In this document: positions 3,092 through 56,305 of the stretch, piece by piece | Numbering within the stretch: the stretch's first letter is position 1 | Layout of the letters: each line of letters starts with the position of its first letter | Source: an uncultured bacterium | Lineage (GTDB): Bacteria > Patescibacteriota > Minisyncoccia > UBA6257 > 2-01-FULL-56-20 | Direction: 5' to 3' | Assembly (NCBI GenBank): GCA_963844965.1 | Contig: CAWJQC010000004.1 | Location: 41,609-105,608 of the forward strand | DNA length: 64,000 bases | Made by a program: the position numbers and the translations under genes | Notes under the pieces: model-generated | Told to the model about the DNA's origin: nothing | The model's database searches: none | What the model saw: only the letters and a program-made list of their open reading frames with translations

Positions 3092-3162
3092 GTTAGTGGG
3101 CTCTAGAGTGCTTTGTTTATATTCAGTTAGCCCGCGAACTCGTCAACTGAACAATTTTTCAA

Positions 3163-3595
3163 CTATAACCCATTCTTGTTCAAAACCTCATTCACGACTC
3201 TATCCGCTTTTCTGTTCTCCTCGCGCGGCACGTGGCGGAATTCCACCATTTTAAAGTCAAATTTCAAATTCCATACACCGACGAACAGTGGCTGCAGGTT
3301 TTCTTCCATGATCTTATACTTGCCGTTCAGTTGTTTCACCACGAGTTCGGAATCCATCCTTATTTCAACATCCGACTCCTTCGCTTTCGCTTTGCCAATG
3401 AGCTGTTTTATTTTTTTAAGCGCGAAAATGACCGCTTCGTATTCGGCCTGATTGTTGGTCTTCTCGCCTAGATATTCGCCATATTCTTTATTATCAATCA
3501 CAACCCCGATAGCGGCCGGACCTGGATTTCCCCTGGAACCGCCGTCGGTATAAACGACGTATCTTTGATTCTTTGAATAATTGACCCTTCTTCAT
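3163..3595 (-). CDS. rnhA: ribonuclease HI, interrupted by one frameshift near 3560-3590
   Basis: The ORF gives VVYTDGGSRGNPGPAAIGVVIDNKEYGEYLGEKTNNQAEYEAVIFAL...RHVPREENRKAD, the RNase H catalytic motifs. The in-frame upstream stretch has no start codon. An ATG at 3595 overlaps the upstream gene's stop as ATGA but sits in another frame. Confidence 0.7.
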
Positions 3596-4545
3596 TTTAG
3601 CCTTTCAACAACTTCCATAGCGACCCTTCCAGCGTCTTCCTTACTTTTGAAGAAAGCACCCGCGGCGCCCTTGTGGCCGCCGCCGCCGTATTTTGCCATA
3701 AGTTCACCAGCATGAATTTTTGCCTCGCGCATTCGCCAGGGATTCGCTGAAAGCCCTACCTCAAAAAGGTTGTCGCTCCTTTGCAGGCGGACGGCATAGA
3801 TGGTCTTCGGATAAAGATAGTATGGCGCGAACCGCAGCTTGCCGCTACCTGCCAATGTCAGGTCTATAAATGTCGCCTTGCCGCGAACTTTTATGTTCTT
3901 CCGGTAAAATCTCAATCCCAATCTTATCTTTTTGCGCGCACCGGCTGCGCATTCCTGAACGCGCGGGTCTTTAGCTATTTCCCTGAGCGACTTCCGGGAA
4001 AGAAGGTCTATGAGCGGCCGGCGCGTGCTGTTATCATTGGCGTTCTTTTCAATGAAGGCGTCAATGCGGAGTGCCGGCTCCTTTACTTCAAGCGTCTGCT
4101 TGGCGGATCCATAACCCGCTCCGTCAATAATGTCCAGCCATTTCGTCAACTCCTTGAAGTGCTTGGGTGGTTTCCAGTCGAAACCGACGCGCAGTGACGC
4201 CTCGGTAAAATGGCACGCCGACTTATACGACGGATCGTAACGGCGGAACTTGGATGGTCTGAACTTTTTCCGCCAGCTTTCTTTCTGAAAAGCGGTCGGA
4301 TGGTGGTCAAACCAAAAAAAAGCCCCTGGGTGGTATTGGAAATCCAAAACGATGGCCGGATTGCGCCTGCCGCGGAAGAGTTTGTGCTTCAAAAAGAATT
4401 TTTCGTCCCGCCACTGCGGTAAAATATCAAAACCGAGAGGAACATAACGCTCAATATCGTCGCCGCGGTCGCGCAAAAATGCAAGCATCACCGCCGCTGA
4501 CGCCCATCCGTCAAAATCGTTGTGAAAATAGACGTCGTAAGTCAT
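3592..4545 (-). CDS. DHH-family phosphoesterase (DHH/DHHA1)
   Basis: 317 aa. It has an N-terminal HNDFDGWAS motif (DHH motif I-like) and a C-terminal GGGGHKGAAG (DHHA1 GGGH motif). Confidence 0.6.
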   Translation of the reverse strand: MTYDVYFHNDFDGWASAAVMLAFLRDRGDDIERYVPLGFDILPQWRDEKFFLKHKLFRGRRNPAIVLDFQYHPGAFFWFDHHPTAFQKESWRKKFRPSKFRRYDPSYKSACHFTEASLRVGFDWKPPKHFKELTKWLDIIDGAGYGSAKQTLEVKEPALRIDAFIEKNANDNSTRRPLIDLLSRKSLREIAKDPRVQECAAGARKKIRLGLRFYRKNIKVRGKATFIDLTLAGSGKLRFAPYYLYPKTIYAVRLQRSDNLFEVGLSANPWRMREAKIHAGELMAKYGGGGHKGAAGAFFKSKEDAGRVAMEVVERLK

Positions 4546-4769
4546 TCTCTATTATGATAACGCCTGCCGCCCCTCCTCGCCAACTATCTGAAGTCATCGG
4601 CGAAAAATTCATAACCGCAGATTAGCACGGGCGTGGAAAGAAAATACCAGAATACCACGTCGTCTATGGGAAAAATATGGCCGAAAACAAGAATTGGAAA
4701 GATATATTTTCCGGGTGACCAGGACCCCGTAATTTAGACACAAAGGTCGAAACAAACTACCATTGTGTC

Positions 4770-5033
4770 ATGAGCAACAAAAAAGGGCATCGGATTGCAA
4801 AGGAAGTGAAGGCGGACATCCTCCGCCGCGTGAAGGAAGAAGGCGTTTCGGTGGCCCAAGCCGCGAAGGACCACGGCTTGCACGAGTCCACCATCTATAA
4901 CTGGCTCGGAGCCGGAGCGGCAGGCGCTCCCTCGTGGAGCGAGTTCTCCCGCCTGCAGAAGCAGAACCGCGAGCTCTTTGAGGTGGTGGGCGAGCTCACC
5001 GTGAAGCTCTCTCAGGCCCAAAAAAAGAGTTGA
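4770..5033 (+). CDS. IS3-family transposase OrfA (HTH)
   Basis: MSNKKGHRIAKEVKADILRRVKEEGVSVAQAAKDHGLHESTIYNWL is a helix-turn-helix of IS3/IS911 OrfA type, followed by a leucine-zipper-like tail. Confidence 0.85.
   Translation: MSNKKGHRIAKEVKADILRRVKEEGVSVAQAAKDHGLHESTIYNWLGAGAAGAPSWSEFSRLQKQNRELFEVVGELTVKLSQAQKKS
5020..5027 (+). promoter_or_regulatory. programmed -1 ribosomal frameshift site (A7G) giving OrfAB
   Basis: The run AAAAAAAG sits just before the orfA stop. Slipping by -1 reads ...QKKELTEKRDKS, continuous with OrfB. This is the canonical IS3-family arrangement. Confidence 0.75.
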
Positions 5034-5812
5034 CGGAGAAACGGGACAAGTCGGCCCTGGCCAGGGCCATGGGCGTCTCACGGGCATCGCTCTACTACGT
5101 TCCGAAACAGTACGCGAAGGATTGGGCATTCAAGATCCTGATCGAGGAAGAGCTGCGGCGCCATTCCTCGTACGGCTCGCGGCGCCTGGCGCAAGCCCTC
5201 CACGCGAACCGCAAACGGACCAGGCGTGTGATGAAGCTCTTTGGCATCAAGCCATACCGGAGGCGGGGCAAGAAATATCGTAAATCAAAGGCATCGCGGG
5301 CCTTTCCGAACCTCTTACTTGCCATCATGCCCTCGTACGCGAACCACGTCTGGGCAACCGATTTCACGGAGTTCCTGTATCGCGGCAAGAAAGTGTACGT
5401 GTCCACGATACTCGATCTTTTCACGAGACGATTGATGGGCGTCCATGTGGCGTTGCGGAAAGGATCGCCCCTCACGATACAGACCCTGGCCAACGCGCTT
5501 TTCCACCATCCGCATCCGGTCATCTTCCATTCGGACAACGGCAGCGAGTACAAGGCACGAGCGTTCACCGATACACTGGGGGACTGTGGCATCACGATCT
5601 CGCGGTCGCGGCCCGGTGCCCCATGGGAAAACGGCTACCAGGAATCGTTCTATGACAAGTTCAAGATTGACCTCGGTGATCCCAACCGGTTCGGGACCTT
5701 CGGCGAGCTCGTGGCGGAGATCTACAGCACCTTGTGGCAGTACAACCACACGCGGATCCACTCCGCCCTCAAGATGCCGCCGTCCGTGTTTGCCGAGAAG
5801 ATTGCGGCTTAA
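5030..5812 (+). CDS. IS3-family transposase OrfB (DDE/rve integrase core)
   Basis: WATDFTEF, HSDNGSEYKA and PWENGYQESFY are rve-domain DDE motifs. It lies in the -1 frame relative to orfA. Confidence 0.9.
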   Translation: MTEKRDKSALARAMGVSRASLYYVPKQYAKDWAFKILIEEELRRHSSYGSRRLAQALHANRKRTRRVMKLFGIKPYRRRGKKYRKSKASRAFPNLLLAIMPSYANHVWATDFTEFLYRGKKVYVSTILDLFTRRLMGVHVALRKGSPLTIQTLANALFHHPHPVIFHSDNGSEYKARAFTDTLGDCGITISRSRPGAPWENGYQESFYDKFKIDLGDPNRFGTFGELVAEIYSTLWQYNHTRIHSALKMPPSVFAEKIAA

Positions 5813-5864
5813 CGAAAAAAAACGGCAAAAAGCCGTCGAATCACTGTCTAAAGAAACCTATCCT

Positions 5865-6098
5865 TTACAGGTGTTTATAGCTGCCATCTTCTGGTGCCCA
5901 AGACTCAAACAATTTCTTTAAGTCCTCTATGATTCCCACCTCCCACTCCATAATAACAAGCGCTGCAGTCGTTCCAAAAACGAATATGTGCGCGATTCCG
6001 TCCGAGAGGCCGGATTGCTTGACCACCGCAGCAACCCGATCGGTGATGTTTATAAAATCGTAGTGACCTTTTGTTTTGACGGAAAGGATCATCGCCAT
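5865..6098 (-). pseudogene. YjbQ/UPF0047-family gene truncated at the IS3 right end
   Basis: MAMILSVKTKGHYDFINITDRVAAVVKQSGLSDGIAHIFVFGTTAALVIMEWE...APEDGSYKH matches the first ~76 residues of a ~135 aa family. The stop codon is supplied by the IS terminus (cac cTG TAA). Confidence 0.6.
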
Positions 6099-6266
6099 AT
6101 TATCTCGAAAGTTGCGGGTGGGGTGCAAACGATTCTACCGCAAACTGGTTTTTTTTGCGGTTTTGACATGTCCATGTTTCCCAACTCTATCACTTTAATT
6201 CTATCAGAACAGAGAAAATTATATGCATCTCGGTCTGTCCGATACTAAAACTAGGTGCGGGGAGTA

Positions 6267-6285
6267 GTGGACGACGTTAGAACCT
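6267..6285. repeat. direct repeat, left copy (GTGGACGACGTTAGAACCT)
   Basis: It recurs as GTGGACGGTGTTAGAA...GTTAGAACCT at 7470..7510. The two copies bracket the AT-rich oxidoreductase gene. Confidence 0.5.
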
Positions 6286-6442
6286 GTTTGATGGAAAATG
6301 CCAGCAAATTCAGTATCCCGAGTCTTGTGAGTTAGGTTCCCCCACCCTATCACCCACCATATCTACTCCGGTGGTTGGACGACATAAGGGCCTGTAAAAA
6401 AACCGAACATTCTTATCGCGATCAGCTTTGAGAAATTAACTT

Positions 6443-7498
6443 CTAGTTCCCCATCTTCGGCCCGCTTACGTCGCCATTGTTATTATATCCAGACTTTTCC
6501 CACGTGCCTTTGTAATTAATATCATCGGACAACTCAATTTTGGTTATCCATTTTATCCATTTGTATCCCCATTTTTGTTCCGCAACAAGCTGAAACGGGA
6601 AGCCTTTTTCTGCCGGAATGACAACGTTATTCATTTTATAGGCCAAGAGAATATTATTATTTTCAATATAATCCAGGGGCAGTGAGGTGGTATAACCATC
6701 GCTCGCATAAAATATGACAACTTTTGCTTGTGCTTTAATACCGGCCGATTCCAAAAGGTCTTTGACCAAGACCCCTTCCCATAAAATTTTTGCAGTCCAG
6801 CCCTCGACACAATCAAGCTCCACAACCTTAGAATATTTCTGAAAATTTAGAACTTGATCGTAGGTATAACTTTTTGGAGTCTGGACCAAGCCAGAGATTT
6901 CCAATGAGTAATTATCAATGTCTATATATTGAGTTCCTTTAATCGCGTTATCCTGAATATCGGCAATTGATGATAATTTTTCTCCCTGGTACTCCTTAAC
7001 CTGACTATCTGTTAATTGTTTTGTTGCGTAATCAGACGATAATTTAATTCTGATAAAAGAAATGCTTGCGATTCCGGCCAGCACCAAAAAAATTATTAAA
7101 AACCAAATTTTGGTTCTCAAACCTAAAAATTTATTTTCAGGAGTTGCGTTGAGTGTTTTTTCGGAAACTTTAATTCGGCCCAAGACGATATTCATCAATG
7201 CCAAAACTACTATAATAATACCCGACCAATCATGTGCAAAATTTATCCAAAATAACGGCAAAGGCGCATAGCCAATTACATGATACAATTCCAAAAACTT
7301 AAAAACGCCCGTAATAACCAGTATTGGAACAAAAAATATCAAAACCAGTCGAACAATTTTTCTTAATGCAATCACGCTTTTATTATATCGTTTCCATCCG
7401 AAGTCAACAAAAGCGAAGAGCGTCAAAAAACCACCCCGTGTGCGGAGCGGCGGAAATTTACTCCAACGGGTGGACGGTGTTAGAATATAAATCGCCAA
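6443..7498 (-). CDS. membrane-anchored molybdopterin-dependent oxidoreductase (sulfite oxidase / MsrP-YedY-like domain)
   Basis: The C-terminal half reads LDCVEGWTAKILWEGVLVKDLL...FYASDGYTTSLPLDY...LLAYKMNN..IPAEKGFPFQLVAEQKWGYKWIKWITKIEL, typical of the Mo-cofactor oxidoreductase fold. The N-terminus is hydrophobic. The true start is uncertain. The gene is visibly AT-rich. Confidence 0.65.
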   Translation of the reverse strand: MAIYILTPSTRWSKFPPLRTRGGFLTLFAFVDFGWKRYNKSVIALRKIVRLVLIFFVPILVITGVFKFLELYHVIGYAPLPLFWINFAHDWSGIIIVVLALMNIVLGRIKVSEKTLNATPENKFLGLRTKIWFLIIFLVLAGIASISFIRIKLSSDYATKQLTDSQVKEYQGEKLSSIADIQDNAIKGTQYIDIDNYSLEISGLVQTPKSYTYDQVLNFQKYSKVVELDCVEGWTAKILWEGVLVKDLLESAGIKAQAKVVIFYASDGYTTSLPLDYIENNNILLAYKMNNVVIPAEKGFPFQLVAEQKWGYKWIKWITKIELSDDINYKGTWEKSGYNNNGDVSGPKMGN

Positions 7499-7510
7499 AA
7501 GTTAGAACCT
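7470..7510. repeat. direct repeat, right copy (split form)
   Basis: GTGGACGGTGTTAGAAtataaatcgccaaaaGTTAGAACCT; compare 6267..6285. Confidence 0.5.
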
Positions 7511-7555
7511 CAAATTGCTTACCGGATAAGCGTTAACCGAGAAAAATTATCGTAG

Positions 7556-7626
7556 CGGGGGCAGTAGGAATCGAACCCACGTTAGCGGTTTTGGAGACCG
7601 CTGTCCTGCCACTGAACGATGCCCCC
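7556..7626 (-). tRNA. tRNA-Trp (anticodon CCA)
   Basis: The minus strand reads GGGGGCATCGTTCAGTGGCAGGACAGCGGTCTCCAAAACCGCTAACGTGGGTTCGATTCCTACTGCCCCCG, a cloverleaf with anticodon loop CTCCAAA. No CCA is encoded. Confidence 0.9.
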
Positions 7627-8027: not shown

Positions 8028-9906
8028 TTAAACGGTCCCTCGGGGTGACGCGCGGAACGCAGCCTCAACATCCAGGTCCTCCCAGCCGGCTTTCTTCAAT
8101 TCGCCGCGAATCACGTCGTCCACAAACGCGGCGGCGCGGGCGGCCCTGATATATTCCACGAGCTCCGGATTCTGGGAACCGGCTTGGGTTGATTTCACTT
8201 CCGCGGCCGGAGAAGCGGCGGTTGCGGCGTCCGCGCTAACTTGCCGCGCGGCTTCAGGGTTCGCCGCTGAAGCCGCTGAATTGTTTTTCTCCGCTTCTTC
8301 CCGCGTCGCCTCATGTTTTATAAGTTCTTTCTCTTCCGTCTCCAGCTTCACTATTTCCTCCTCCTCTTTTTTCATCCGCTTGCGAAGCATGACTACGACA
8401 AACGCCGCTATTATCAGAACCAACACTCCGCCGCCCGCGATAAGCCACGCGGTGAGTCCGACTCCGCTCAGCCGCTCCTTTATGACATCCCATGGCGTAT
8501 CAAGCGACCCGCCCGCGGCGATAAGCGCCGCGCACTGCTCTATATACGGGTCAGCGTATTTGTTTACGGAGAATTTCGCGTCGGAATTCTCGGCTATCTT
8601 GAATTGCTCCGTCGCTTTCTTGCACTGCTTGGCGTGCAGAAGCGCGAGACCCTGTTCCATTGAATCGGTGAAGCCGCTTGTATCGTTTTTCAGCGACTGT
8701 GCGTCAAGCGCGGCTTTCGCCAGTTCAACCGGAACGGCGGATGCGAAATTATCCCCTAAAATGTCGCTGAGCCCCGATTCAAATGTCACCAAACCAATGA
8801 CCTCTCCGTCAGCTCCGAAGAGCGGCCCTCCGCTTGAACCTTCGGAGATCTTCGCGTCCGATTGCAATATTTTGAAATCCTTATTTTGGGAATCTTTGAT
8901 GGCGGTTATCACTCCCTGTGTGAACGTCGGCTCAAGATAATCTTGCGACCCGATACTGGGCCGTACCCGGAAAGCCAAACACGTAAATTTTCTGGCCGAC
9001 AGCGGCCAACGCCGAAGCGCCGAGCTTCATGGCCGCGAGGTTACTTTCGCCAATCTTAAGAATAGCGACGTCCTTGTCGTCAAGGTTGTAGTTATCATTC
9101 ACGCTCAAAACCGTTGCCGGAAACGAATCTTTGATAAGTTCGGTGAGTTTTTGTTTCGTTGATGTCGGATTCAGCACGACGACCTCCCGCAAGATGTCAA
9201 AGCGGCTGTTGGCTTCCAGGGCGGATAAAATTTTCTTTCCATATTCTTCTCCCATGCTTTCCGCATCCAGCGAGTCAATCCCTTTATCTTTATAATACTT
9301 TTCCAAGTCCTGTATTTCATTCGGTTTCAAGGAGAACATTTCTTTGAATATCACCGACGTCATAGCCGCGCCGAGTATCGCCTGCCGCATGGTCTCTTCC
9401 GAAACAACATGGGAGTTTGTGAGGACCAGGCCGGATGGATTCACGACGAAACCGCTGCCCGCGAGATACTGCTCCGTGGAAGTGCCGTTAACGGCGCCTG
9501 ATTTCGGAAACGACACGGCAAACGTTCGGAGGTCAATGCTAAAATCGGGCACCGTTGAGGTTACCAGGAAATGCGTGAGCACCCGAACAATGGACGGCTT
9601 CGTTATGTCCGCCAATTCCTCTTCGCTCATCGCGAGCGGCTGCGGCGTGGGCATGCTCCAAAGATCGGAGAGCGACGCCGTCCCCGATCTCCCACCGCCG
9701 GGCAAACTGCGGAGAGCAACGGCGCCCAAAAACGCCGTGCTCACAAAAAGCGCGACCAAAAACAAAAAGAGCGGTAGCCATATCCGTCCACCTTCCCTAC
9801 CGTTGCCGATAAATGGCATGTATAAATTATAACAAACCCGGAATGAGCCTGGCACTTCACGACAACTTAAACGTGGGTCTGAATTAACTCGTTCAAATCC
9901 AGCCAA
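8028..9906 (-). CDS. trypsin-like (S1C/HtrA-like) serine protease with a C-terminal TM segment, split by one frameshift near 8950-8965
   Basis: The upstream ORF carries the His and Asp regions (GSGFVVNPSGLVLTNSHVV, DVAILKI). The downstream ORF carries the Ser motif (SEGSSGGPLF). The frames join at ...IYVFGFPG / SIGSQDYLEPTFTQGVI. Confidence 0.7.
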
Positions 9907-38949: not shown

Positions 38950-40132
38950 CCGCTCCTGCGCCGACCGTCTTGCCGCCTTCGCGGATGGCAAAACGCTGTT
39001 TTTCTTCAAGCGCGACCGGGAAATGAGTTTCACGGTGAGTTTAACGGTGTCGCCCGGCATGACCATTTCCATGCCTGCCGGCAAGGGTCACTTCGCCCGT
39101 AACATCGGTCGTCCTGATATAGAACTGCGGCTTGTAGCCGTTGAAGAACGGCGAGTGGCGGCCGCCTTCCTCTTTTGAAAGCACGTAAACCTCGCGCTCG
39201 AATTCCGTGTGCGGCGTGACGCTGCCCGGCTTCGCGACAACCTGCCCGCGCTCCACGTCTTCTTTCTTCAGGCCGCGGAGCAGAACGCCGACGTTGTCGC
39301 CCGCCATGCCTTCGTCCAAGAGTCTTATTGAACATTTCAATGCCCGTGACGACGGTCTTCTGCCGTCGGCCTGCAGGCCGACGATCTCCACTTCTTCGTT
39401 CACTTTCACCTTGCCGCGCTCCACGCGGCCGGTCACGACCGTGCCGCGTCCTTCAATCGAGAAGATGTCTTCGATCGGCATAAGGAACGGCTTGTCGAAG
39501 TCGCGGACCGGATCGGGAATGAATGTCATCCACCGCTTTGATAAGGTCCAAGATCGGTTTCGCGTCCGGGTCGTCGGCGATTTCGCGGCCAACGCTTTCA
39601 AAGCCGAACCGCGGATGATCGGAGTCGTGTCGCCCGGGAATTCGTATTTCTTCAAAAGCTCGCGGACTTCGGACTCAACGAGATCAATGAGTTCCGGATC
39701 GTCCACCTGATCGCACTTATTAAGAAACACGACGATGGTCGGCACGCCGACCTGGCGGGCAAGCAAAATGTGCTCGCGCGTCTGCGGCATCGGGCCGTCG
39801 GTCGCGGCGACGACCAAAATCGCGCCGTCCATCTGCGCGGCGCCCGTGATCATGTTCTTGATATAGTCGGCGTGTCCCGGCGCGTCAATGTGCGCGTAGT
39901 GGCGCTTCTCGGATTCGTACTCCGAATGGTGCAGGGCGATCGTGATGCCGCGCGCCTTTTCCTCCGGAGCGTTGTCAATTTGGTCCACTCTCTCTTCTTT
40001 CTTCGTCAGACCCTTCAAATGCAAAACGTGCATAATCGCGGCGGTCAGGGTCGTCTTGCCGTGGTCAACGTGGCCGATCGTGCCGATGTTCATGTGCGGC
40101 TTGGCCCGGTAGAATTTTTCTTTTTCAGCCAT
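38950..40132 (-). CDS. tuf: elongation factor Tu, with four apparent single-base indels
   Basis: The N-terminus is canonical ([53 protein letters not shown]). A compensating pair near 39515-39527 and 39585-39600 scrambles [21 protein letters not shown]. Two more, near 39075-39085 and 39015-39020, break the C-terminus (..[20 protein letters not shown] / [29 protein letters not shown]). Confidence 0.88.
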
Positions 40133-41436: not shown

Positions 41437-43541
41437 TTACCGTTTTTTGCCTTCGATAATCAACTGCGCAATGTTCTGCGGCACTGGCTCATAATGGTCA
41501 AATTCCATCGTGAACGCTCCCCTGCCTTGCGTCATGGAACGCAACTCGGTCGCGTAGCCGAACATTTCCGCGAGCGGAACTTTGGCGTCAATCACTTTCA
41601 CGTTGGGCCGGTCGGAAATTTCCTCAATCCTGCCGCGCTTGGAGTTCAAGTTGCCGCTCACCTCGCCCAAAAATTCTATCGGGATGATAACCTGAAGCTT
41701 CATTATCGGCTCCAATATGACCGGCTTCGCGCGCTTCGCCGCTTCCTGCAGGGCGATGGAGCCAGCAATTTTGAAAGCCGCCTCCGACGAGTCAACTTCA
41801 TGGAAAGAGCCGTCATAGAGCGAAACTTCAAGGTCGGTCATCGGGTAGTGGGCAACGACCCCCTTACTCAATGCTTCCACCACACCTTTTTCCACCGCCG
41901 GGATGAATTCGTTCGGAATGATCCCTCCCTGATATCGTCTATGAAAACAAATCCCTTGCCGCGCTCCAAGGACTTCACGCGCAGCCAGACATGTCCGTAT
42001 TGTCCGCGGCCGCCGGATTGCCTGATATATTTGCCTTCCGCCTCCGCTTCGCCCATAATCGTTTCTTTATAGGCAACCTGCGGCCGCCCCACCGAACCCT
42101 CAACACCGAACTCCCGCTTCATCCTGTCAACAATAATTTCCAGGTGCAACTCGCCCATGCCAGAAATAATCGTCTCGCCAGTTTCCAGGTCGCCCGCCAC
42201 GCGGAAAGTCGGGTCTTCTTCCGCCAAGCGGTGCAGGGCAATGCTCATTTTTTCCTGGTCGGCTTTCGTCTTCGGCTCAATGCGAATGCCGATCACCGGC
42301 TCGGGGAATATGATCTTCTCAAGCACTATCGGCGCGTCGGGACTGCAAAGCGTGTCGCCGGTCGTCGTATTCTTCAAACCGACGATCGCCGCGATATCTC
42401 CGGCATGCACTTCCTCCATTTCTTCGCGGTGGTTGGCGTGCATCCGCACCACGCGGCCGACACGTTCCTGCTGGTCCTTCTTGGAATTCAAAACGTACGT
42501 GCCGCGCTTCAAAACGCCGGAATAATTCCGGAAATAGGTTAAAGTGCCGACGTACGGGTCTGTCGCAACCTTGAAAGCCAGCGCCGAGAACGGCTCTTCG
42601 TCCTTGGGGTGCCGCACGATATCGGCGCCGCTCTTCGGGTCAATGCCCTTAACCGGAGGAAGGTCCGTCGGCGCGGGCAAATATTCCACAACCGAGTCAA
42701 GCATAAATTGCACGCCTTTGTTTTTCAGGGCCGAACCGCAAAGCACCGGCACAATTTTGTTGGCAATAACGGCTTTGCGCAAAACGCGGCGCAAATCTTC
42801 AATGTCAAGCTCAGTACCATCCAAATACTTGGTCATCAAGGCATCGTCATTGTCCACAATGCGTTCCACAAGTTCATGCCGCGCCTTCTTCACGTGCACT
42901 TTCATATTTTCCGGCATCGGAATTTCTGTAATCTTTTCGCCATGTTCACCCTCCGAGCCGTACGCCTTTTCGGTTAAGAGGTCTATCATTCCCACGAATT
43001 CACCCTCAAGGCCGATGTTCAACTGCAAAGGCAGTGCGTTCGGCGTGAGCCGTTCTTTGATTGACTGCAAACTTTTTTCAAAGCTCGCACCCAAGCGGTC
43101 AAGTTTGTTAATAAAGCAAATCCGCGGCACGTGGTACTCATCGGCATAGCGCCAGTTCGTTTCCGACTGCGGCTCAACACCTGCGACGCCATCAAAGACG
43201 ACAACCGCGCCGTCCAAAACGCGGAGCGAACGCTTCACCTCCACCGTAAAGTCAATGTGCCCCGGCGTGTCAATCAAATTTATCATATGCTCAAATTTTT
43301 TGTCGCCCTTGCGGTAAGTCGGAATCCAGAACGCCGTCGTTGCGGCGGAAGTAATCGTAATTCCCCTCTCACGTTCCTGCTCCATCCAATCCATCACCGT
43401 GTCGCCCGTGTGCACCTCGCCGATTTTGTGACTGACGCCCGTATAAAAAAGCACCCGTTCGCTCACGGTGGTTTTGCCGGCATCTATATGGGCGATGATG
43501 CCGATGTTACGGACCTTCTCGACAGGATACATTCTAGGCAT
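41437..43541 (-). CDS. fusA: elongation factor G, split by one frameshift near 41920-41933
   Basis: [35 protein letters not shown]. At ..FIDDIR the frame slips; adding one G in atcaGGGaGGGatc restores [30 protein letters not shown], which joins the two track ORFs. Confidence 0.9.
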
Positions 43542-46221: not shown

Positions 46222-46294
46222 GTCCCTGTAGCTCAACGGATAGAGCGTGTGGCTTCGAACCACAAGGTTGCAGGTTCAAATCCTGCCAGGGACG
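46222..46294 (+). tRNA. tRNA-Arg (anticodon TCG)
   Basis: GTCCCTGTAGCTCAACGGATAGAGCGTGTGGCTTCGAACCACAAGGTTGCAGGTTCAAATCCTGCCAGGGACG, with loop CTTCGAA. It is bracketed by the perfect inverted repeat CCCTCCCACCTTTG / CAAAGGTGGGAGGG. Confidence 0.9.
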
Positions 46295-46321
46295 CAAAGG
46301 TGGGAGGGTGAAGATATCATA

Positions 46322-46367
46322 TGTGGCTTCGAACCACAGGTTCCAGGTTCGAGTCCTGGCGAGGGCA
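46322..46367 (+). pseudogene. 3' fragment of a different tRNA-Arg(TCG) (anticodon arm to acceptor 3' strand)
   Basis: TGTGGCTTCGAACCACA is identical to the anticodon arm of the neighbouring gene. It is followed by a different T-arm (CCAGGTTCGAGTCCTGG) and acceptor strand (CGAGGGC). There is no 5' acceptor or D-arm. Confidence 0.7.
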
Positions 46368-46464
46368 CACACAACATTTCGTATCGCGGCATCGTGGGGG
46401 CCGACGCTCTAGCGCGACCCCGAGAGGCCTACCGATACGGAATATCGTCCTCCTTATTTCTCTA

Positions 46465-46832
46465 TTAAGAGCCGGCAAAAATACTTTTGATAAGGCTTGT
46501 AATGCCGCCTGCTATCAGCACGATCACAAAACCGACTGCCGCATACGTAAGGGTCTTCTTCCCTTTCGAAAATTTTTCAGGATCGCCAGCCGCCGTCATC
46601 ATTTGAAACCCGCCGACAAGCACCATTATACTTGTGAGCGGCGCTGCAATATCGTAAAAAAGAAATCCCGCCACACTATTCGCGACGGACACCAAGCTGC
46701 CCCCCCATTCGTACAATTTGGATCGAACGGATTAAAAAGTTGGTTGGGAGGGCACGCGGCAAAAGCTAACTTCGCGACGGTTAAGGCGCTGACTGTTATT
46801 AAAATCTTTGTTGTGCGGCGGATAATATGCAT
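46465..46832 (-). CDS. small two-TM pilin-like protein (TrbC/VirB2-like T4SS-pilin type seen in CPR), frameshifted in a C7/G7 run at ~46697-46705
   Basis: A signal-like N-terminus (MHIIRRTTKILITVSALTVAKLAFA) is in one frame. SLVSVANSVAGFLFYDIAAPLTSIMVLVGGFQMMTAAGDPEKFSKGKKTLTYAAVGFVIVLIAGGI is in the next. The family assignment is from memory of the pattern. Confidence 0.45.
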
Positions 46833-46883
46833 ATGGATTATTATAGCATACGAGATAGCGTGGCAGAAGCCCATTTTGTTTAG

Positions 46884-48221
46884 CTATTTCTGCAAGCTCA
46901 GAATTTTATTCCTGAACGTCAACTTACTCTTGAAGCAAGATAGCAATTCGCGTTTCTCGACCGTGCTGCCCTTTTTGAGAAGATATTTTGCGTACGTTTT
47001 AAGGTCAATTTCTTTAGTGGCCGCTTTCGATCCTTCTCCCAAGACATCGTTCGCGAATTTGCGATATCGTTCCATCTCGTCTTCGAATTTCTTCTGCATC
47101 CCAATCTCACTGATATCCATCTCGTCAATGATAGCGAGAAGTTGAGCGATCAATTCCTCTTCGCGAATGTATCCGCACTTGCAATCCTTATCTTTCGAGC
47201 GTGAGCATCCATAGTACACGTACCGCGCCGTCGTTCCATCCTTGTGCGCCTTATATTTCTCGCACGCACTGATGCCCGATCCGCATAGGCCGCACGAGAT
47301 CAGTTTCGTAAACGAAAATTCCTTTATCTCCGACCTGATGACAAAATCTCGGTGCAGCTGCTCCTGTACTTTATCGAACAGCTCCCGCGAAATGATTGCT
47401 TCGTGCTTGCCGCTGTACCAGTTACCGCTCTTCAGTGGATACTCAAAGATGCCGCAGTAAAATGGATTTTTGAGGATGATATAAATATTGGATAACGAAA
47501 GCACTTTCCCATTCTTTGTTCTGAATTTGATTTCCGACTTCAGCCAATGATAAAGCTTCCGGCCCGACCATTGTTCGTCGGCGACTTTCTGGAGCATTTG
47601 CTTGATGACGGGCGCTCGCAGGGGATCAATGATAACTTCACAAGGACGGTCGGTGCTCTTCTCGTTAAGATACCCTGTCGGTGCGATAGACGGACGCAAA
47701 CCTTGTTCGCACCGCATCCGTAATCCGCGCTTCACGTTTTCCGATTTGTTATCATTCTCAAGTTTCGCTTGGCTGCACAAAATCATCAACATGAATTTCT
47801 CGCTCGGCGAGTTCGTGAATTTCTGGCTGAAGGTTCTGATCTCGATAAGTAATTTTTGATCCATCAAGTCCACCAAGCCGCCAAGGTCGCCCGCGTTGCG
47901 GCTCAAGCGATCCGGCGCCCATGTAAGGATACCGTTGAATTCGCCGGAACGAATATCAATAAGCAACTCGTTAAAAATTTTTCGCTGGCCGACAGCTTTT
48001 GCGGAATGGCTTTCCTTTCTAACTTCGGCGATCTCAAGGTTATCGCGCTCGGCGATTTTCAGCATCTCCTTTATCTGACTATCAATGGAAAGCACTTGCT
48101 GTTCCTCGCTCTCCGTACTTTTCCTCGCATAGAGGCAGTATTTTATTTTTATCGCTTCGGCCTTTGTCGCAGAAACGCCCGACTGATCCCAGCCCTTTGG
48201 TATATTTGTTATTTTCTCCAT
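46884..48221 (-). CDS. large serine recombinase (resolvase domain, recombinase domain, zinc ribbon)
   Basis: YCLYARKSTESEEQQVLSIDSQ (catalytic Ser region), LTWAPDRLSRN, later CGLCGSGISAC...YYGCSR. About 445 aa from MEKITNIPKGW. Confidence 0.85.
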   Translation of the reverse strand: MEKITNIPKGWDQSGVSATKAEAIKIKYCLYARKSTESEEQQVLSIDSQIKEMLKIAERDNLEIAEVRKESHSAKAVGQRKIFNELLIDIRSGEFNGILTWAPDRLSRNAGDLGGLVDLMDQKLLIEIRTFSQKFTNSPSEKFMLMILCSQAKLENDNKSENVKRGLRMRCEQGLRPSIAPTGYLNEKSTDRPCEVIIDPLRAPVIKQMLQKVADEQWSGRKLYHWLKSEIKFRTKNGKVLSLSNIYIILKNPFYCGIFEYPLKSGNWYSGKHEAIISRELFDKVQEQLHRDFVIRSEIKEFSFTKLISCGLCGSGISACEKYKAHKDGTTARYVYYGCSRSKDKDCKCGYIREEELIAQLLAIIDEMDISEIGMQKKFEDEMERYRKFANDVLGEGSKAATKEIDLKTYAKYLLKKGSTVEKRELLSCFKSKLTFRNKILSLQK

Positions 48222-48377
48222 ACCTAAGGGATGCCGCAACGGCGGAAGGAGTCCAGAGCATCCTTGTCGGTAACTCAAAACTCGATATCAGGCGACGAAG
48301 GGGCAAAGAAGGCAAGCAGAGTGATTTCCCCAGCCACCCTCTTTAAGACCATTTATAAACGAGCTATAATAATTCTA

Positions 48378-53623: not shown

Positions 53624-56305
53624 ATGAGTGGGATAAAAATAAATCTTTCTCTCAGCGAAATCCCAGGCATCGGCCCGCGTTTTCTGGAACGGCTGGGAAA
53701 ACTCGGCATAAAAACCGTCCGTGATCTCATTTATCATTTTCCGGCCCGCTACGAGGATTTCTCCCAGATATACAAAATTTCCGACGTTGAGCCGGGGGAA
53801 CAGGTAACAATACGTGGCGTTGTTGAAGACACCAAACTGCGGCGGACTTGGAGAAAACACATGACAATCGCCGAAGCCCTGATCCGCGACGATTCCGGAA
53901 CGATACGCGCCATCTGGTTCAACCAACCATATGTTTTGAACACTCTGCGGGTCGGGCGCACGGCGAATTTCGCAGGCAAAATATCCATATCGGACGAGGA
54001 CGAAATTTATTTGAGCCACCCGGCTTATGAAATCGTCGGCAGTCGGGAGTCGGGAACGGAGAAGCAAGAAACAAAACATACAGCGCGGCTCGTCCCCATT
54101 TATCCCGAAACGCGCGGCCTCACATCCAAGGGGTTGAGATATCTGATCCAGCCAATTCTGAAAAACAGCGAACAGCTGGAGGAATGGCTGCCGCCGGAAG
54201 TTCTGCGCGAAAATAATTTTCCCGAAATAAACCTTGCGCTCAGATCCATACACTTCCCCGAAAAAACCGAGGATGCTCTTGTCGCGAAAAAACGCTTCAC
54301 TTTTGAAAACCTGTTCCTGCTGCAACTCGCCAATCTTGAACAAAAATTGAAACTCGCGCGCGAAAAAGCGCCAGTGATCAAAACCGACATAGAACACCTG
54401 AAAAAAATGATCTCGGAACTGCCATACGAACTCACGTTTTCGCAAAAGAAATCATTGTGGGAAATCATCCAGGACCTCGCCAAAAAACAGCCGATGAACC
54501 GCCTGCTCCAGGGCGACGTGGGCTCCGGCAAGACGGTTGTCGCGGCGCTCGCCGCGGTAATTACCGCGGAAAACGGGCTGCAGACCGCGTTTATGGCGCC
54601 AACCGAGGTTCTCGCGAGACAGCATTTTGAAACATTGAAAAAATTATTCGCCGGAATTCCCTCGATCCATCAACCCGTAGTTGGGCTTCTCACGTCAAGC
54701 GAAGCAAAAATCCTCTACGCGACAGACCTTGAATCAAAAATCAAAAAACCGGAGTTGCAGGAAAAAATAAAAAACGGCGAGGTAAAAATAGCCATCGGCA
54801 CGCACGCTTTGATACAAAAAGACGTGGCGTTCGGCAATCTTGCCTTTATCATCATTGACGAACAGCATAGATTCGGCGTCTCACAACGAGCTGCGCTCGT
54901 TCGCGGACAGACGCAGAATGATAATACGCGGACAGACGCTGAACAACTACTATACGAAAAAACGACGTTTGAGATAAGAAAAAGTCTGTTTGAGGTGAGA
55001 AAACAACTGGGCCTTGGTCATAAAGAAGTGGTGTATCAGAAAGCATTGGAGGAGGAGTTCAAGAAATCCGGTGTAATATTTGAGAAAGAAAAGAAAATTC
55101 CTGTCGTTTATAACAAGAAAAAGATTGGCGTTTATCAACCGGATTTTGTCATAGATAATGAAGTAATTTTGGAACTTAAGGCTCTTCCCTTTATCGGCGG
55201 CATCGAAAAAAAACAGCTGTGGAATTATTTGAGGGGTTCGGATTACAAACTCGCGCTTATGGCAAACTTTGGACCGGAAAGATTATCCATAGAGCGGGTA
55301 GTATACGATATTGCGCGGAGTCGGCGGCTGTCAGCGTCCGGTCAGCAACTGTCCGCGCCTATCCCCCACCTCCTCTCAATGTCCGCCACGCCAATCCCAC
55401 GCACGCTCATGCTCACCGTCTTCGGCGATTTGGATATATCGCTCATCACCGAACTTCCCGCCGGCAGAAAAAATATCGTAACAAAAATAATCCCCCCACG
55501 GGGCAGGAGCGAAGCCTATGAATTCATCCGCGGCGAAGTGAGGGCCAGCCGGCAGGTTTTTGTCATCTGCCCCCGCATTGACAAACCGCAGACAGGCGCA
55601 GACCACACGCAGACAAACGCAGACAAGACACAGACAGACGCAGACAATTTTCAGCGGCTGTCTGCGTCAAGTCAGCGACTGTCCGCGTTAAGTCCACGTA
55701 AGTCCGCGTTAGTGTGGGAAGTAAGATCCGTGAAAGAAGAATTTGAAAAATTATCCAAGAAAATTTTTCCGGATTTGCGCGTCGCCATGCTCCACGGCCA
55801 GCTCAAGCCAAAAGAAAAAGCGGGTATCATGAAGGACTTCCGCAACTACAAAATAGATATTCTCGTTTCAACTTCCGTCGTGGAAGTTGGCGTGGACGTG
55901 CCGAACGCAACAATAATGATGATTGAAGGCGCCGATCGCTTCGGGCTGGCTCAGATCTACCAATTCCGCGGACGCGTGGGGCGCGGCGAACACCAATCCT
56001 ATTGCTTCCTGTTCACGGATTCGTCCGCCAAAACTACGCGCGAGCGGCTGCAGGCCGTCCTTGAAGCCAAGAACGGCTTTGAGCTCGCCGAGAAGGACCT
56101 GAAGATCCGCGGTCCCGGCGAATTCCTCGGCACGGCGCAGACCGGCTTTCCCGACACGGCGATGAGCGGCCTCATGAACCCGGAGCTCGTGAAAGCAAGC
56201 CGCGAAGCGGCGGCAAAAATCGTCCAAAAAGATCCGCTTTTCAAAAATTATCCGCTCCTGAAAACCAAATTAAACGAGTTCCGGAAGGAAATCCACTTGG
56301 AGTAG
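53624..56305 (+). CDS. recG: ATP-dependent DNA helicase RecG carrying two in-frame insertions
   Basis: Wedge/OB N-terminus; motif I GDVGSGKT; motif II [11 protein letters not shown]; motif III [9 protein letters not shown]; later [15 protein letters not shown] and QFRGRVGRG. 893 aa against ~680-700 expected. The excess is accounted for by 54908-55357 and 55589-55708. Confidence 0.92.
   Translation: [893 protein letters not shown]
54908..55357 (+). other. 450-nt in-frame insertion in recG encoding a GxxExxY-family (PD-(D/E)XK-like) domain flanked by inverted word repeats
   Basis: [87 protein letters not shown] matches the GxxExxY pattern. The flanks are cgcggacagacgcagaat..tacgcggacagacgctga and the reverse-complement-like ctgtcagcgtccg..ctgtccgcgc. 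Confidence 0.75.
55589..55708 (+). repeat. 120-nt in-frame palindromic insertion in recG (solo copy of the same word-repeat arms)
   Basis: cagacaggcgcagaccacacgcagacaaacgcagacaagacacagacagacgcagaca attttca gcggctgtctgcgtcaagtcagcgactgtccgcg. It translates as [40 protein letters not shown]. Confidence 0.7.

Follow-up and report, generated by a model that had tools for sequence, protein, structure and literature searches.

In this study, the molybdopterin oxidoreductase gene beside tRNA-Trp was found to be compositionally foreign, and its horizontal acquisition from a much more AT-rich Parcubacteria lineage is well supported. The repeats on both sides of the gene lead to X, an intergenic element that, judging from its sequence distribution, appears to be widespread in Parcubacteria and undescribed, and that seems to mark sites where single genes come and go. 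On balance, we lean towards a gene import from an AT-rich donor by recombination at repeats carrying the X core. The features around the gene in the window, by which we mean the whole 64-kb stretch of DNA analysed, are as follows.

4716-5869, plus strand: IS3-family insertion sequence (orfA 4770-5033, orfB 5030-5812; HTH_Tnp_1 and rve domains)
5865-6128, minus strand: 5' part of a YjbQ/UPF0047 gene, cut by IS3; the ORF stops at the IS end
6257-6352, minus strand: copy of X, whose invariant 3' end AAACAGGTTCTAACGTCGTCCACTACTCCCCGC (6289 down to 6257) includes the left repeat 6267-6285
6361-6438, minus strand: left flank repeat F'', which starts 4 nt past the stop codon, pairs with 7456-7549 and includes the partial core 6376-6395
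6443-7375, minus strand: probable CDS of the oxidoreductase
7376-7410, minus strand: upstream region that travelled with the gene; nucleotide homology to loci L001 and L002 reaches 7410
7430-7451, minus strand: terminator-like hairpin and T run, between the right repeat and the oxidoreductase promoter region
7456-7549, minus strand: right flank repeat F', which starts 5 nt past tRNA-Trp and includes the right repeat 7470-7510
7555-7626, minus strand: tRNA-Trp(cca), found by ARAGORN and Rfam; last gene of the conserved block

The initial annotation described a 351-codon ORF, and this was recovered on the minus strand at 6443-7498, starting from TTG, with a match to PF00174 (Oxidored_molyb; E=1.7e-35, 122.6 bits against a Pfam cut-off of 24). 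Fourteen homologues of 294-325 aa align from the GTG at 7375, so the real CDS is probably 6443-7375 (310 aa, GTG start), and the right repeat lies upstream of the CDS instead of inside it. The reported AT-richness was borne out: the GC content of the CDS is 36.7% against a window mean of 50.1% (sd 3.3), the lowest among all 933-nt windows of the stretch. Per-gene GC (z=-4.3) and GC3 (0.387 against 0.590+/-0.063, z=-3.2; lowest of 51 ORFs), both computed on the 351-codon ORF and not on the 310-aa CDS, were likewise low. The proposed comparison of codon usage had a different outcome, as the codon-choice log-likelihood gave no separation and placed the gene at rank 23 of 51. A TATAAT box, read directly from the sequence, lies at 7382-7387, only 6 nt ahead of the GTG start; therefore, the leader of the mRNA may be very short or missing. 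The hairpin further upstream has a 9-pair stem, with 6 G-C pairs, followed by TTTTT (terminator scan). The non-coding DNA that separates the CDS from the repeats has 45-48% GC; it is not AT-rich, and is nearer to the host than to the gene. Besides the oxidoreductase gene, no ORF of at least 50 aa with a family match lies between the repeats.

A search for homologues, suggested earlier as a way to find the donor, placed the nearest protein relatives in AT-rich Parcubacteria and in other gene contexts. The closest homologues share 83% and 81% amino acid identity with the window protein, and 82% nucleotide identity over 6434-7410; their hosts are Parcubacteria with 36-44% GC, in which the gene has unrelated neighbours and no tRNA. 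Gene and genome GC are 35.5 vs 37.6% in L001 and 42.2 vs 44.6% in L003, against 36.7 vs 50.1% in the window. The actual donor lies outside the sampled genomes. As to the view that the acquisition was recent, GC3 has not ameliorated towards the host, which favours it, and the best available relative is merely 82% identical in DNA, which does not. As an event the transfer is ordinary, a move between Parcubacteria lineages within a gene family that is common among them.

The gene order shared with related genomes is broken at the insert. The conserved block consists of DnaE, two tRNA-Thr genes, L33 and tRNA-Trp, and the common order stops directly past tRNA-Trp. L33 stays within about 10 kb of DnaE in about 35 of 80 related loci; in most of the 12 loci scanned for tRNAs, L33/tRNA-Trp adjoins the two tRNA-Thr genes and DnaE. 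On the 3' side of tRNA-Trp every relative examined differs, with rplJ-rplL, large secreted proteins, a cytochrome-b-like gene or others in this place. The oxidoreductase protein had no match within 10 kb in the 80 related-genome loci, in which DnaE is 56-75% identical.

The left repeat, reported as GTGGACGACGTTAGAACCT and located at 6267-6285, belongs to the X family. X is an intergenic element of about 100 nt found in groundwater and sediment contigs; its final 35 nt or so are invariant, and conservation drops sharply past CCCCGC. A search by nhmmer with a profile of 22 metagenome copies aligned 6325-6257 with profile positions 33-101 (E=1.4e-11). The window copy is 80% identical to that of L133 over 91 nt (blastn), and 33-35 nt are identical to several loci. 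An exact 22-mer of X is present in 48 metagenome contigs, none of which comes from a close relative of the host. X arrays lie between same-strand genes. About 20 of 31 X copies contain a promoter-like pair, TTGATT-17-TAAACT, reading towards the core; the window copy is of a subtype that does not have this pair. In L087 and L132, hairpins follow X.

Several identities for X were considered and rejected. X as a known RNA found no support from Rfam or ARAGORN: none of the 4,227 covariance models matched over X at the gathering score in the window and 10 loci, nothing appeared in the X region of the window at E<=10, and ARAGORN reported no tmRNA. Sub-threshold Rfam matches in L094 lay on the opposite strand, over the upstream terminator hairpin. 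Apparent likenesses to tmRNA ends, the 3' half of 5S rRNA, 16S rRNA at about 880-915 and the T7 promoter had no model match and were treated as coincidence. An attC, REP or terminator-type hairpin was dismissed after single-strand DNA folds of 11 copies proved no better than shuffles (z-scores from -0.57 to +1.31). RNAalifold found zero consensus pairs in 31 copies, and the sketched helices AGAACC/GGTTCT and GAGTAGTGG/CCACTACTC are not kept across copies. A riboswitch or leader was rejected on account of heterogeneous downstream genes. The candidate genes that follow X, from translations that were read but not Pfam-checked, include GIY-YIG, methyltransferase, GNAT, IF-2, P-type ATPase, pilin-like and OMP decarboxylase genes, and others. 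A guide-RNA scaffold of the TnpB/IscB type was set aside, there being no conserved protein neighbour in the 48 loci; small candidate GIY-YIG ORFs recur near X in 7 loci, and none occurs in the window. A phage attP was dismissed as well, the 22-mer having no match in 2.9 million viral contigs.

In other genomes, X lies at points where genes are gained or lost. L088 contains X, a gene for 209 aa and X again, and L109 contains a single X; the junction falls in a stretch of about 22 nt of the invariant core. Over 4.2 kb the identity between L001 and L002 is 99.93%, and their divergence begins at an X-like copy. In L001 the homologous oxidoreductase gene lies within a five-gene stretch between X-like copies and is not a one-gene unit. 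L098 shows X, a candidate GNAT ORF (not Pfam-checked) and a core copy directly past its stop codon, and L114 has four cores with one or two same-strand genes between them. Four loci, L050, L113, L122 and L096, share the order tRNA-Trp, variable gene, X, and each holds another gene in the variable position; in L050, for example, tRNA-Trp is followed by one different gene and then X. The insert of L122 is surrounded by a 151-nt duplication that is 93% identical.

At the window locus, the right repeat had been reported in two parts, and these were found as GTGGACGGTGTTAGAA at 7470-7485 and GTTAGAACCT at 7501-7510; together, 7470-7510 is a degenerate copy of the X core in which the word TTCTAAC is duplicated. 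A third, partial copy, also reported earlier, was located at 6376-6395. These stretches form part of a longer imperfect direct repeat of about 80-95 nt and about 70% identity on the two flanks. Gapped local alignment of 7456-7549 with 6361-6438 scored 41; among 500 shuffles 4 scored as high, as did 8 of 567 random pairs (p of about 0.01 on its own). A 14/16 flank-to-flank match was also seen for 5 of 144 pairs of flanks picked at random in the window. Alone, therefore, the repeat pair is only modestly above chance. The right-copy core, ATTCTAACACCGTCCA, has 3 mismatches to the 16-nt core of the X family, and 3-mismatch core matches occur about 10 times per 2.9 Mb in block-shuffled sequence. 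What makes the repeats convincing is the membership of the left copy in a family whose conservation is independent of this locus, as the nhmmer match indicates. Each flank copy holds a degenerate core, GTTCTAAC-TCGTCCAC, and a near-complete X directly follows the left copy. No inverted partner of the core was found within the window. The description of these repeats as att-like thus holds in one respect: they are copies of a conserved element that lies at single-gene presence/absence junctions elsewhere (L088/L109; L001/L002). In other respects it fails, since they are not tRNA-derived, form no attC-like hairpin and have no linked recombinase, and no empty site was found.

From these observations we infer how the gene may have been inserted. 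The host is a Parcubacteria genome of about 50% GC, Paceibacteria- or 'Liptonbacteria'-like, and with the gene it acquired some 35 nt of the donor DNA ahead of the start. The gene now follows tRNA-Trp directly, in a place whose content differs in every relative examined, and would have entered by recombination at repeats bearing the X core. Either a circular or linear donor fragment with an X-core copy recombined with a resident copy, or a site-specific exchange took place at the core. Taken as a whole, we hold this explanation to be rather more probable than its negation, if only slightly.

Several observations weigh against this mechanism. The copy next to the tRNA is the fragment and the distal one is the full X, which reverses the order usually seen when integration takes place at the 3' end of an RNA gene. 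There is no adjacent recombinase: no tyrosine recombinase was found among about 60 window ORFs scanned, and apart from the IS3 transposase the window has only a serine recombinase, located at tRNA-Arg at a distance of 39 kb. The homology to donor-like genes (6434-7410) does not reach the repeats and ends 40-60 nt inside the stretch that they bracket, the non-coding flanks have host-like GC and the flank repeat is weak. An empty site in a relative, with one repeat copy, had been proposed as a check, and neither an empty site nor a circular form was found for the window genome. Look-ups by exact protein (L33 and the 310-aa protein) gave no match, and the look-up of the DHH protein yielded nothing beyond a 1.2-kb contig from the same strain.

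Homologous replacement after DNA uptake is an explanation that we regard as unlikely, if deserving serious attention. Crossovers in tRNA-Trp and X would swap the intervening DNA; the repeats would be incidental, and X would be a regulatory or promoter-like module. Exchange between conserved genes occurs in such a way in the minimal mobile elements of Neisseria. The locus resembles these in having a fixed site between conserved tRNA-Trp and X, with a different gene per genome, and differs in that the flanks are an RNA gene and a non-coding element of about 100 nt, not protein genes, and in that the flank is duplicated. Both potential crossover regions are conserved, given that tRNA-Trp of the window is 72-99% identical to those of relatives and that the end of X is invariant. 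The recurrence of tRNA-Trp, variable gene and X in four loci, the promoter-like pair in most X copies and the duplication in L122, which resembles homology-driven integration, also fit. However, a double crossover leaves no duplicated flank, and a duplicate is present at the window locus. The promoter-like pair is missing from the window's subtype of X, and arrays of the L114 type consist of only the core region of about 45 nt, with no promoter. In addition, the L088/L109 junction lies within a core that is short for RecA-type recombination.

A classical tRNA-targeting islet, in which an integrase would have acted at tRNA-Trp and left copies of the tRNA 3' end as attL and attR, is improbable. 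The tRNA-Trp had been annotated 50 bp beyond the right repeat and was found 44 nt past it, and the insert begins 5 nt past this tRNA. In L030, a relative, the 3' end of tRNA-Trp is repeated in tandem; therefore, the tRNA is used as an att site in the clade, in line with such an islet. As in tRNA- and tmRNA-linked islands, the insert lies directly 3' of a tRNA, has direct repeats and is foreign in composition. In contrast to such islands, it is a single-gene insert of about 1.1 kb, with no integrase gene between tRNA-Trp and IS3, and its repeats neither overlap the tRNA nor derive from it. Copies of the tRNA-Trp 3' end (ACTGCCCCC, GCT.CGAT by eye) were considered as an origin of the repeats and rejected, with Smith-Waterman scores at noise level: when 7 element copies were compared with 148 tRNAs of the fetched loci, tRNA-Trp was never the best match.

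Transport of the gene by IS3, through composite or one-ended transposition, is very improbable. The presence of an IS3-family element to the left was verified, at about 4716-5869; it ends 398 nt from the left repeat, and L134 has a related IS3 copy, 81% identical, at a distance of 1.2 kb from X, both of which are compatible with this route. However, the window has a single IS copy; no second IS3-like stretch was found in it, and nothing IS-like on the tRNA side. The element has its own imperfect terminal inverted repeats (TG...CA, read by eye) at about 4716 and 5869, and the flanking repeats do not correspond to IS ends. Its GC content is 57%, against 37% for the gene; therefore, its origin is different from that of the oxidoreductase gene. 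The truncated YjbQ gene and the full X separate it from the gene, and the interruption of YjbQ was a separate event. The YjbQ fragment covers positions 1-61 of 117 in PF01894 and 3-75 of 132 in TIGR00149; on the far side of IS3, the remainder was not recognisable in the three minus-strand frames of 4540-4780.

Equally remote is the case of no transfer, whether through an assembly chimera (several essential genes of the window appear frameshifted, and therefore the assembly is imperfect) or through a native gene made AT-rich by coding for a hydrophobic membrane protein (membrane helices make up the first third of the protein), since L006, a contig of a separate Logan assembly (ERR10755942) that may share the window's sample, covers the tRNA-Trp/gene junction at 99.7% identity, orthologues elsewhere carry the GC of their own genomes, GC3 is largely independent of amino acid content and is the lowest of the ORFs, and the gene is absent from this locus in the 80 relatives.

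Within the preferred explanation, recombination at X-core repeats, a more specific proposal is possible, and we advance it tentatively. Parcubacteria may have an undescribed gene-cassette system with integron-like logic, whose recombination site would be the invariant core, (A)GGTTCTAAC-R-TCGTCCACTACTCCCCGC; same-strand genes in arrays would each be gained or lost precisely there, through a recombinase that acts on a linear, unstructured, sequence-conserved site. The oxidoreductase gene would be one such cassette, captured beside tRNA-Trp. Similar to integron cassettes and attC arrays, including integrase-less CALINs, X arrays consist of mostly small same-strand genes split by a repeated site, which lies just past a stop codon and shortly ahead of the next start. 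One-gene presence/absence with the junction inside the site is also shared, and the core 8-mer GTTCTAAC starts with GTT and ends with AAC, as do core and inverse-core sites. Unlike attC, X has no imperfect-palindrome hairpin and is conserved in sequence, not in structure. Moreover, no IntI-type integrase was seen, and many X copies have a promoter-like pair.

The oxidoreductase has a membrane-bound N-terminus and a catalytic C-terminus. In the model, the N-terminal part forms three membrane helices with one invariant His (His48). This domain of the window protein reaches no Pfam cytochrome model; the N-termini of homologues score DUF4405, Ni_hydr_CYTB and Ferric_reduct, and PF14358 is reached by homologues P0009 (1.3e-9) and P0012 (6.8e-6). 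The C-terminal domain resembles MsrP/YedY, has a sulfite-oxidase fold and carries Cys189 in a CVEGW motif. Cys189 (LDCVEGW) is invariant in the alignment of 15 family members and aligns with the Cys of MRCVEAW in E. coli YedY (1XDQ), which we take to be Cys102, the Mo ligand of that enzyme. Sequence searches of the PDB matched SorA (E=3.5e-13) and YedY (E=4.3e-7), and Foldseek against 2CA3, 2BLF, 1XDQ and 1XDY (SorA and YedY) gave a probability of 1.0 with rmsd of 2.2-2.9 A over 165-185 columns. The AlphaFold model has a mean pLDDT of 72, which is moderate confidence, and is better in the domain core. The NCBIfam model for MsrP (NF003767) scored 66 bits against a cut-off of 207, below equivalog level; by this measure the protein would be a relative of MsrP and not its orthologue.

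The most likely function is that of a single-chain MsrPQ analogue. By analogy with the family, electrons would flow from a heme-b membrane domain to a molybdopterin domain of the MsrP/YedY type on the extracytoplasmic side, and this domain would reduce S- or N-oxides, for example the methionine sulfoxide of surface proteins; cofactor and substrate are here those expected from the family. Similar to MsrP-MsrQ (YedY-YedZ) of Gram-negatives, the protein has a SUOX-fold catalytic domain with no dimerisation domain, as in YedY; its CVEGW aligns with RCVEAW of E. coli YedY, and its model superposes on 1XDQ and 1XDY. The partner would in both cases be a heme-b membrane module; heme b binding and a likeness to MsrQ have been shown for DUF4405 (PMC11334425). 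Unlike MsrP-MsrQ, the window protein fuses both parts in one chain, has three helices and one invariant His where MsrQ has six helices, and has no Tat signal; no conserved twin-arginine motif was found in the family alignment. PruR, a small periplasmic pterin-binding protein (7KOM, 7RKB, 7KOS), has the same SUOX fold (TM-score 0.65-0.74 relative to the target) and a weak sequence match, and would offer a function of this fold with no molybdenum. However, PruR is soluble and has 134-149 aa, whereas the window protein keeps the Mo-ligand Cys of YedY and is closer in sequence to SorA and YedY.

Molybdenum enzymes were considered unusual in CPR genomes, and this was not upheld. The family, which combines the three-helix domain (a DUF4405 cytochrome b in relatives) with the MsrP/YedY-like domain, has at least 7,288 matches, and those that are named belong to Parcubacteria, Nealsonbacteria, Falkowbacteria, Pacebacteria or Patescibacteria. 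No moa, moe, mog or mob family was found among about 60 ORFs scanned in the window, and Moco synthesis is not known from the host clade.

In sum, the repeats beside this gene lead to an undescribed element of about 100 nt that lies at one-gene presence/absence junctions, is not represented in Rfam and shows no detectable fold. If X is a recombination site, it would explain how accessory genes are exchanged in tiny, largely host-dependent genomes that have no recognisable mobile-element machinery, and would provide a sequence tag for the flexible gene pool in metagenomes. Thousands of Patescibacteria encode the cytochrome-b/MsrP-like fusion with the Mo-ligand cysteine intact. If Moco synthesis is truly absent, Patescibacteria would scavenge the cofactor or use the fold in another way, as in the pterin-binding PruR.

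The 351-codon ORF, its repeats, tRNA-Trp and the IS3 element were all recovered where the initial annotation had placed them. The ORF runs on the minus strand from a TTG at 7498 to a stop at 6443 and matches the molybdopterin-binding domain PF00174 (E=1.7e-35). Its homologues have 294-325 aa, and their alignment begins at GTG 7375, where the window protein reads MIALRK versus MIAFKK in the closest full-length relative. Judged from this alignment, the oxidoreductase CDS is most likely 6443-7375 (310 aa), which would leave the right repeat outside the gene, in the upstream spacer. The features of the region, in window positions, are as follows.

4716 to 5869 (approximate ends): IS3-family element, orfA 4770-5033, orfB 5030-5812
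5865-6128: YjbQ/UPF0047 gene, truncated by the IS3 element
6267-6285: left repeat, GTGGACGACGTTAGAACCT
6376-6395: weaker third repeat copy
6443-7375, minus strand: most likely oxidoreductase CDS, from PF00174 and the homologue alignment
7470-7485: right repeat, part 1, GTGGACGGTGTTAGAA
7501-7510: right repeat, part 2, GTTAGAACCT
7555-7626, minus strand (shared with the oxidoreductase gene): tRNA-Trp

The IS3-family element lies 398 nt left of the repeat-flanked gene region; because it has its own ends and 57% GC and disrupts YjbQ, it is an event separate from the arrival of the oxidoreductase gene.

The gene is as AT-rich as had been claimed. Its CDS has 36.7% GC versus 50.1% for the window, the lowest among all 933-nt windows of the stretch. 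Among 51 non-overlapping ORFs, the gene has a GC z of -4.3 and the minimum GC3 (0.387 versus 0.590+/-0.063, z=-3.2), but synonymous-codon likelihood over these ORFs does not set it apart. The AT-rich stretch is essentially the CDS alone, which is separated from the repeats by spacers of 45-48% GC.

The protein belongs to a family with at least 7,288 matching proteins, and the organism-named members all come from Parcubacteria, Nealsonbacteria, Falkowbacteria, Pacebacteria or Patescibacteria; in terms of gene content, the supposed rarity of these enzymes in CPR genomes therefore does not hold. The two closest relatives show 83% and 81% protein identity, with 82% DNA identity over window 6434-7410. 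Their contigs have 36-38% and 43-45% GC; in both, the gene's GC fits its surroundings, and the neighbourhoods are unrelated and lack a tRNA. The host is a Paceibacteria/'Liptonbacteria'-like organism whose DnaE is at most 75% identical to that of any of 185,579 species representatives. Among 80 related loci picked by DnaE similarity, L33 lies within ~10 kb upstream of DnaE in about 35, with LysRS on the other side in most; of the 12 loci searched for tRNA genes, most show L33 and tRNA-Trp adjoining DnaE and the pair of tRNA-Thr genes. The oxidoreductase gene occurs within 10 kb in none of the 80. The sequence after tRNA-Trp is different in every relative examined.

L029: rplJ-rplL-tRNA-Val
L007, L017: large secreted proteins
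L050: cytochrome-b-like gene
L030, L113, L122, L096: other genes

Neither rplJ nor rplL is found anywhere in the window. A Logan contig (L006, run ERR10755942) matches window 6548-7582 at 99.7% identity, including the tRNA-to-gene junction. Composition, closest relatives, absence from the related loci and the variable site combined support the proposed horizontal transfer: the gene appears to have come into a hypervariable site from a Parcubacteria lineage that is AT-rich. The actual donor lies outside the sampled genomes, and "recently acquired" holds only relative to the time needed for composition to drift to that of the host.

L006 is the same strain in another assembly. Compared with the window, two substitutions place an in-frame stop in its gene (ACGATCAAG to ACGAATAAG) and one nucleotide is inserted in an A run, reflecting either inactivation or sequencing error. 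Some essential genes of the window also look incomplete: fusA (41437-43541) and a trypsin-like protease gene (8028-9906) each appear as two overlapping ORFs, and EF-Tu (39041-40132) lacks the last part of domain 3. Assembly-consensus indel errors are the probable cause, rather than pseudogenes; therefore, single-base differences such as the L006 stop should not be over-read.

In the structure model, residues ~135-310 adopt a sulfite-oxidase fold that superposes on SorA and E. coli YedY at 2.2-2.9 A. Cys189 in CVEGW is invariant in the family and aligns with the cysteine of YedY RCVEAW, which is the Mo ligand. Residues 1-111 are modeled as three long helices; in the family alignment, a TG..KF motif and a single His are invariant there. 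Relatives match DUF4405, cytochrome b561 or ferric-reductase-like families over this region, whereas the window protein has no significant score to them. DUF4405 was shown to bind heme b and resembles MsrQ (PMC11334425). The charge distribution, read by eye, suggests that the catalytic domain faces outward, and the family alignment has no conserved twin-arginine motif before the last helix. By analogy, the likeliest function would be that of a one-chain MsrPQ analogue repairing or reducing S-/N-oxides outside the cell. The protein does not reach the MsrP equivalog score, and its catalytic domain has the same fold as the PruR pterin-binding proteins; its Mo content is therefore not a given. No Moco-biosynthesis gene is among the roughly 60 ORFs of the window that were scanned.

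Elsewhere in the window, tRNA-Arg(tcg) (46222-46295) precedes a partial tRNA-like match (46307-46359) and a large serine recombinase gene on the minus strand (46884-48278; Resolvase, Recombinase and Zn_ribbon_recom). The region 46222-48278 looks like an element integrated at tRNA-Arg. Right of the recombinase are a RecG helicase gene (53624-56305), with a PD-(D/E)XK nuclease domain inserted between the helicase domains, and a gene whose product has a Peptidase_S74 (tail-fibre chaperone) domain (62947-63951); both may belong to the same element. A bacterial class A RNase P RNA lies at 1493-1902 on the minus strand (100.2 bits; Rfam gathering score 100), and the ORF over it (1276-1863) is spurious.

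A blastn search of the flanks against the related loci revealed 91% identity between window 6257-6289 and a stretch of L050. In L050, tRNA-Trp is followed by a single gene of another kind, and the matching stretch starts directly past the stop codon of that gene. The exact 22-mer TTCTAACRTCRTCCACTACTCC occurs in 48 contigs of a metagenome collection, with groundwater and sediment predominating, and in most of them it ends a conserved intergenic element of ~100 nt, here named X, whose invariant 3' end contains a conserved core. The majority-subtype consensus is TTAATTGATTTTAGC, ~10 nt, GATAAACTTGGTATAAAGAA, ~20 variable nt and AAAAYAGGTTCTAACRTCGTCCACTACTCCCCGC; an extra module, ATAGTGAGTAGCGGGGTGGGGTA, lies upstream in several loci, and similarity ends sharply past CCCCGC. 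Approximate search found more X-type copies in L030, L007 and L062, and the AT-rich contig with the closest homologue (L001) has 8-9 diverged X-like copies in 20 kb. By chance, matches to the 16-nt core turn up ~10 times in 2.9 Mb of block-shuffled sequence when three mismatches are allowed and almost never when the limit is two. A profile built from 22 X copies matches window 6325-6257 (E=1.4e-11). The oxidoreductase gene and YjbQ are therefore separated by a near-complete copy of X, of which the left repeat is the invariant end; the right repeat is a degenerate fragment of the core. In a gapped alignment, 94 nt from 5 nt past tRNA-Trp (7549 to 7456) resemble 78 nt (6438 to 6361) starting 4 nt past the oxidoreductase stop codon; the score of 41 was equalled in 4 of 500 shuffles and 8 of 567 random window-segment pairs. 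This alignment indicates that the insert lies between the two halves of an imperfect direct repeat (80-95 nt), each of which includes one core-like copy. The full X copy is next to the left flank repeat, on the far side from the gene.

About two-thirds of X copies have a conserved sigma-70-like pair (TTGATT, 17 nt, TAAACT) directed to the core; the pair is missing from the window's subtype and from the short copies of L114, so a promoter is not the whole explanation of X. A riboswitch is disfavoured because the downstream genes, judged from translations by eye, are functionally unrelated. An attC, REP or terminator hairpin was rejected because folding of 11 copies finds none, and a tRNA-Trp derivative because alignments of X to tRNA-Trp score at noise level. 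There is no consensus structure among 31 copies, no overlapping Rfam match, no predicted tmRNA and no protein family constantly next to X, and the viral collection does not contain the 22-mer.

Comparisons among other genomes show that X cores sit at the borders of small units gained and lost. L088 has a 209-aa gene between two X copies, and the related strain L109 has a single X. The sequence upstream of this X is 100% identical to that before the first L088 copy, and the sequence downstream is 96% identical to that after the second; the variable base of the L109 core is that of the first copy, which places the junction inside ~22 nt of invariant core. L001 and L002 share 99.93% identity over 4.2 kb and are unrelated from a diverged X-like copy onward. 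In L098, X is followed by a candidate GNAT ORF (by eye, without Pfam check), with a core copy immediately after its stop codon. The four cores of L114 are separated from one another by one or two same-strand genes, and L097 has two cores. L122 carries a 1.1-kb insert between tRNA-Trp and rplJ with X at its end, flanked by a 151-nt direct repeat of 93% identity (3140-3290 and 4281-4431).

The L122 insert contains two opposite-strand ORFs besides its X copy. Direct-orientation core arrays, with one or two same-strand genes between cores, lie at 5269, 7114, 8685 and 9537 in L114 (X orientation) and at 44, 709 and 1590 in L088; a toxin-antitoxin-like ORF pair (by eye, without Pfam check) lies ~4.5 kb to one side of the L114 array. 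In L030 (6330-6431), the 3' end of tRNA-Trp is repeated in tandem after the gene (GTAGGTTCGATTCCTACTGCCCCCGC), a classical att duplication that makes tRNA-Trp an integration target in the clade. In another genome (L134 1316-2462), an IS3 element with 81% identity to the window's is located 1.2 kb away from X; the left end is 90-91% identical there and at L126 13356-13454. Candidate GIY-YIG ORFs of 86-103 aa (by eye, without Pfam check) occur near X or adjoining tRNA in 7 of 48 loci (L088 1641-1949, L109, L089/L104/L129, L094 1285-1545, L122 4550-4810) and not in the window. They may be free-standing homing endonucleases exploiting the conserved sequence.

For this window, the evidence best supports entry of the oxidoreductase gene through recombination in which the core-bearing repeats took part; this would have been site-specific or homology-driven. 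The leading alternative is that tRNA-Trp and X served as two conserved anchors for simple homologous replacement of the sequence between them, which alone would leave no duplicated flank. A strong claim is not made, because no empty site was found for this genome and no linked recombinase was found, homology to the donor-like genes stops short of the repeats on their inner side, the spacers next to the CDS lack its AT-richness, and the order fragment-gene-full X copy is unusual. The initial interpretation is thus borne out for the transfer, half correct for the att-like repeats, which are real copies of a conserved element, and wrong on the rarity of the enzyme.

In sum, the transfer itself is ordinary. 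As far as the databases and literature searched show, X is undescribed, and it is the part most worth pursuing.
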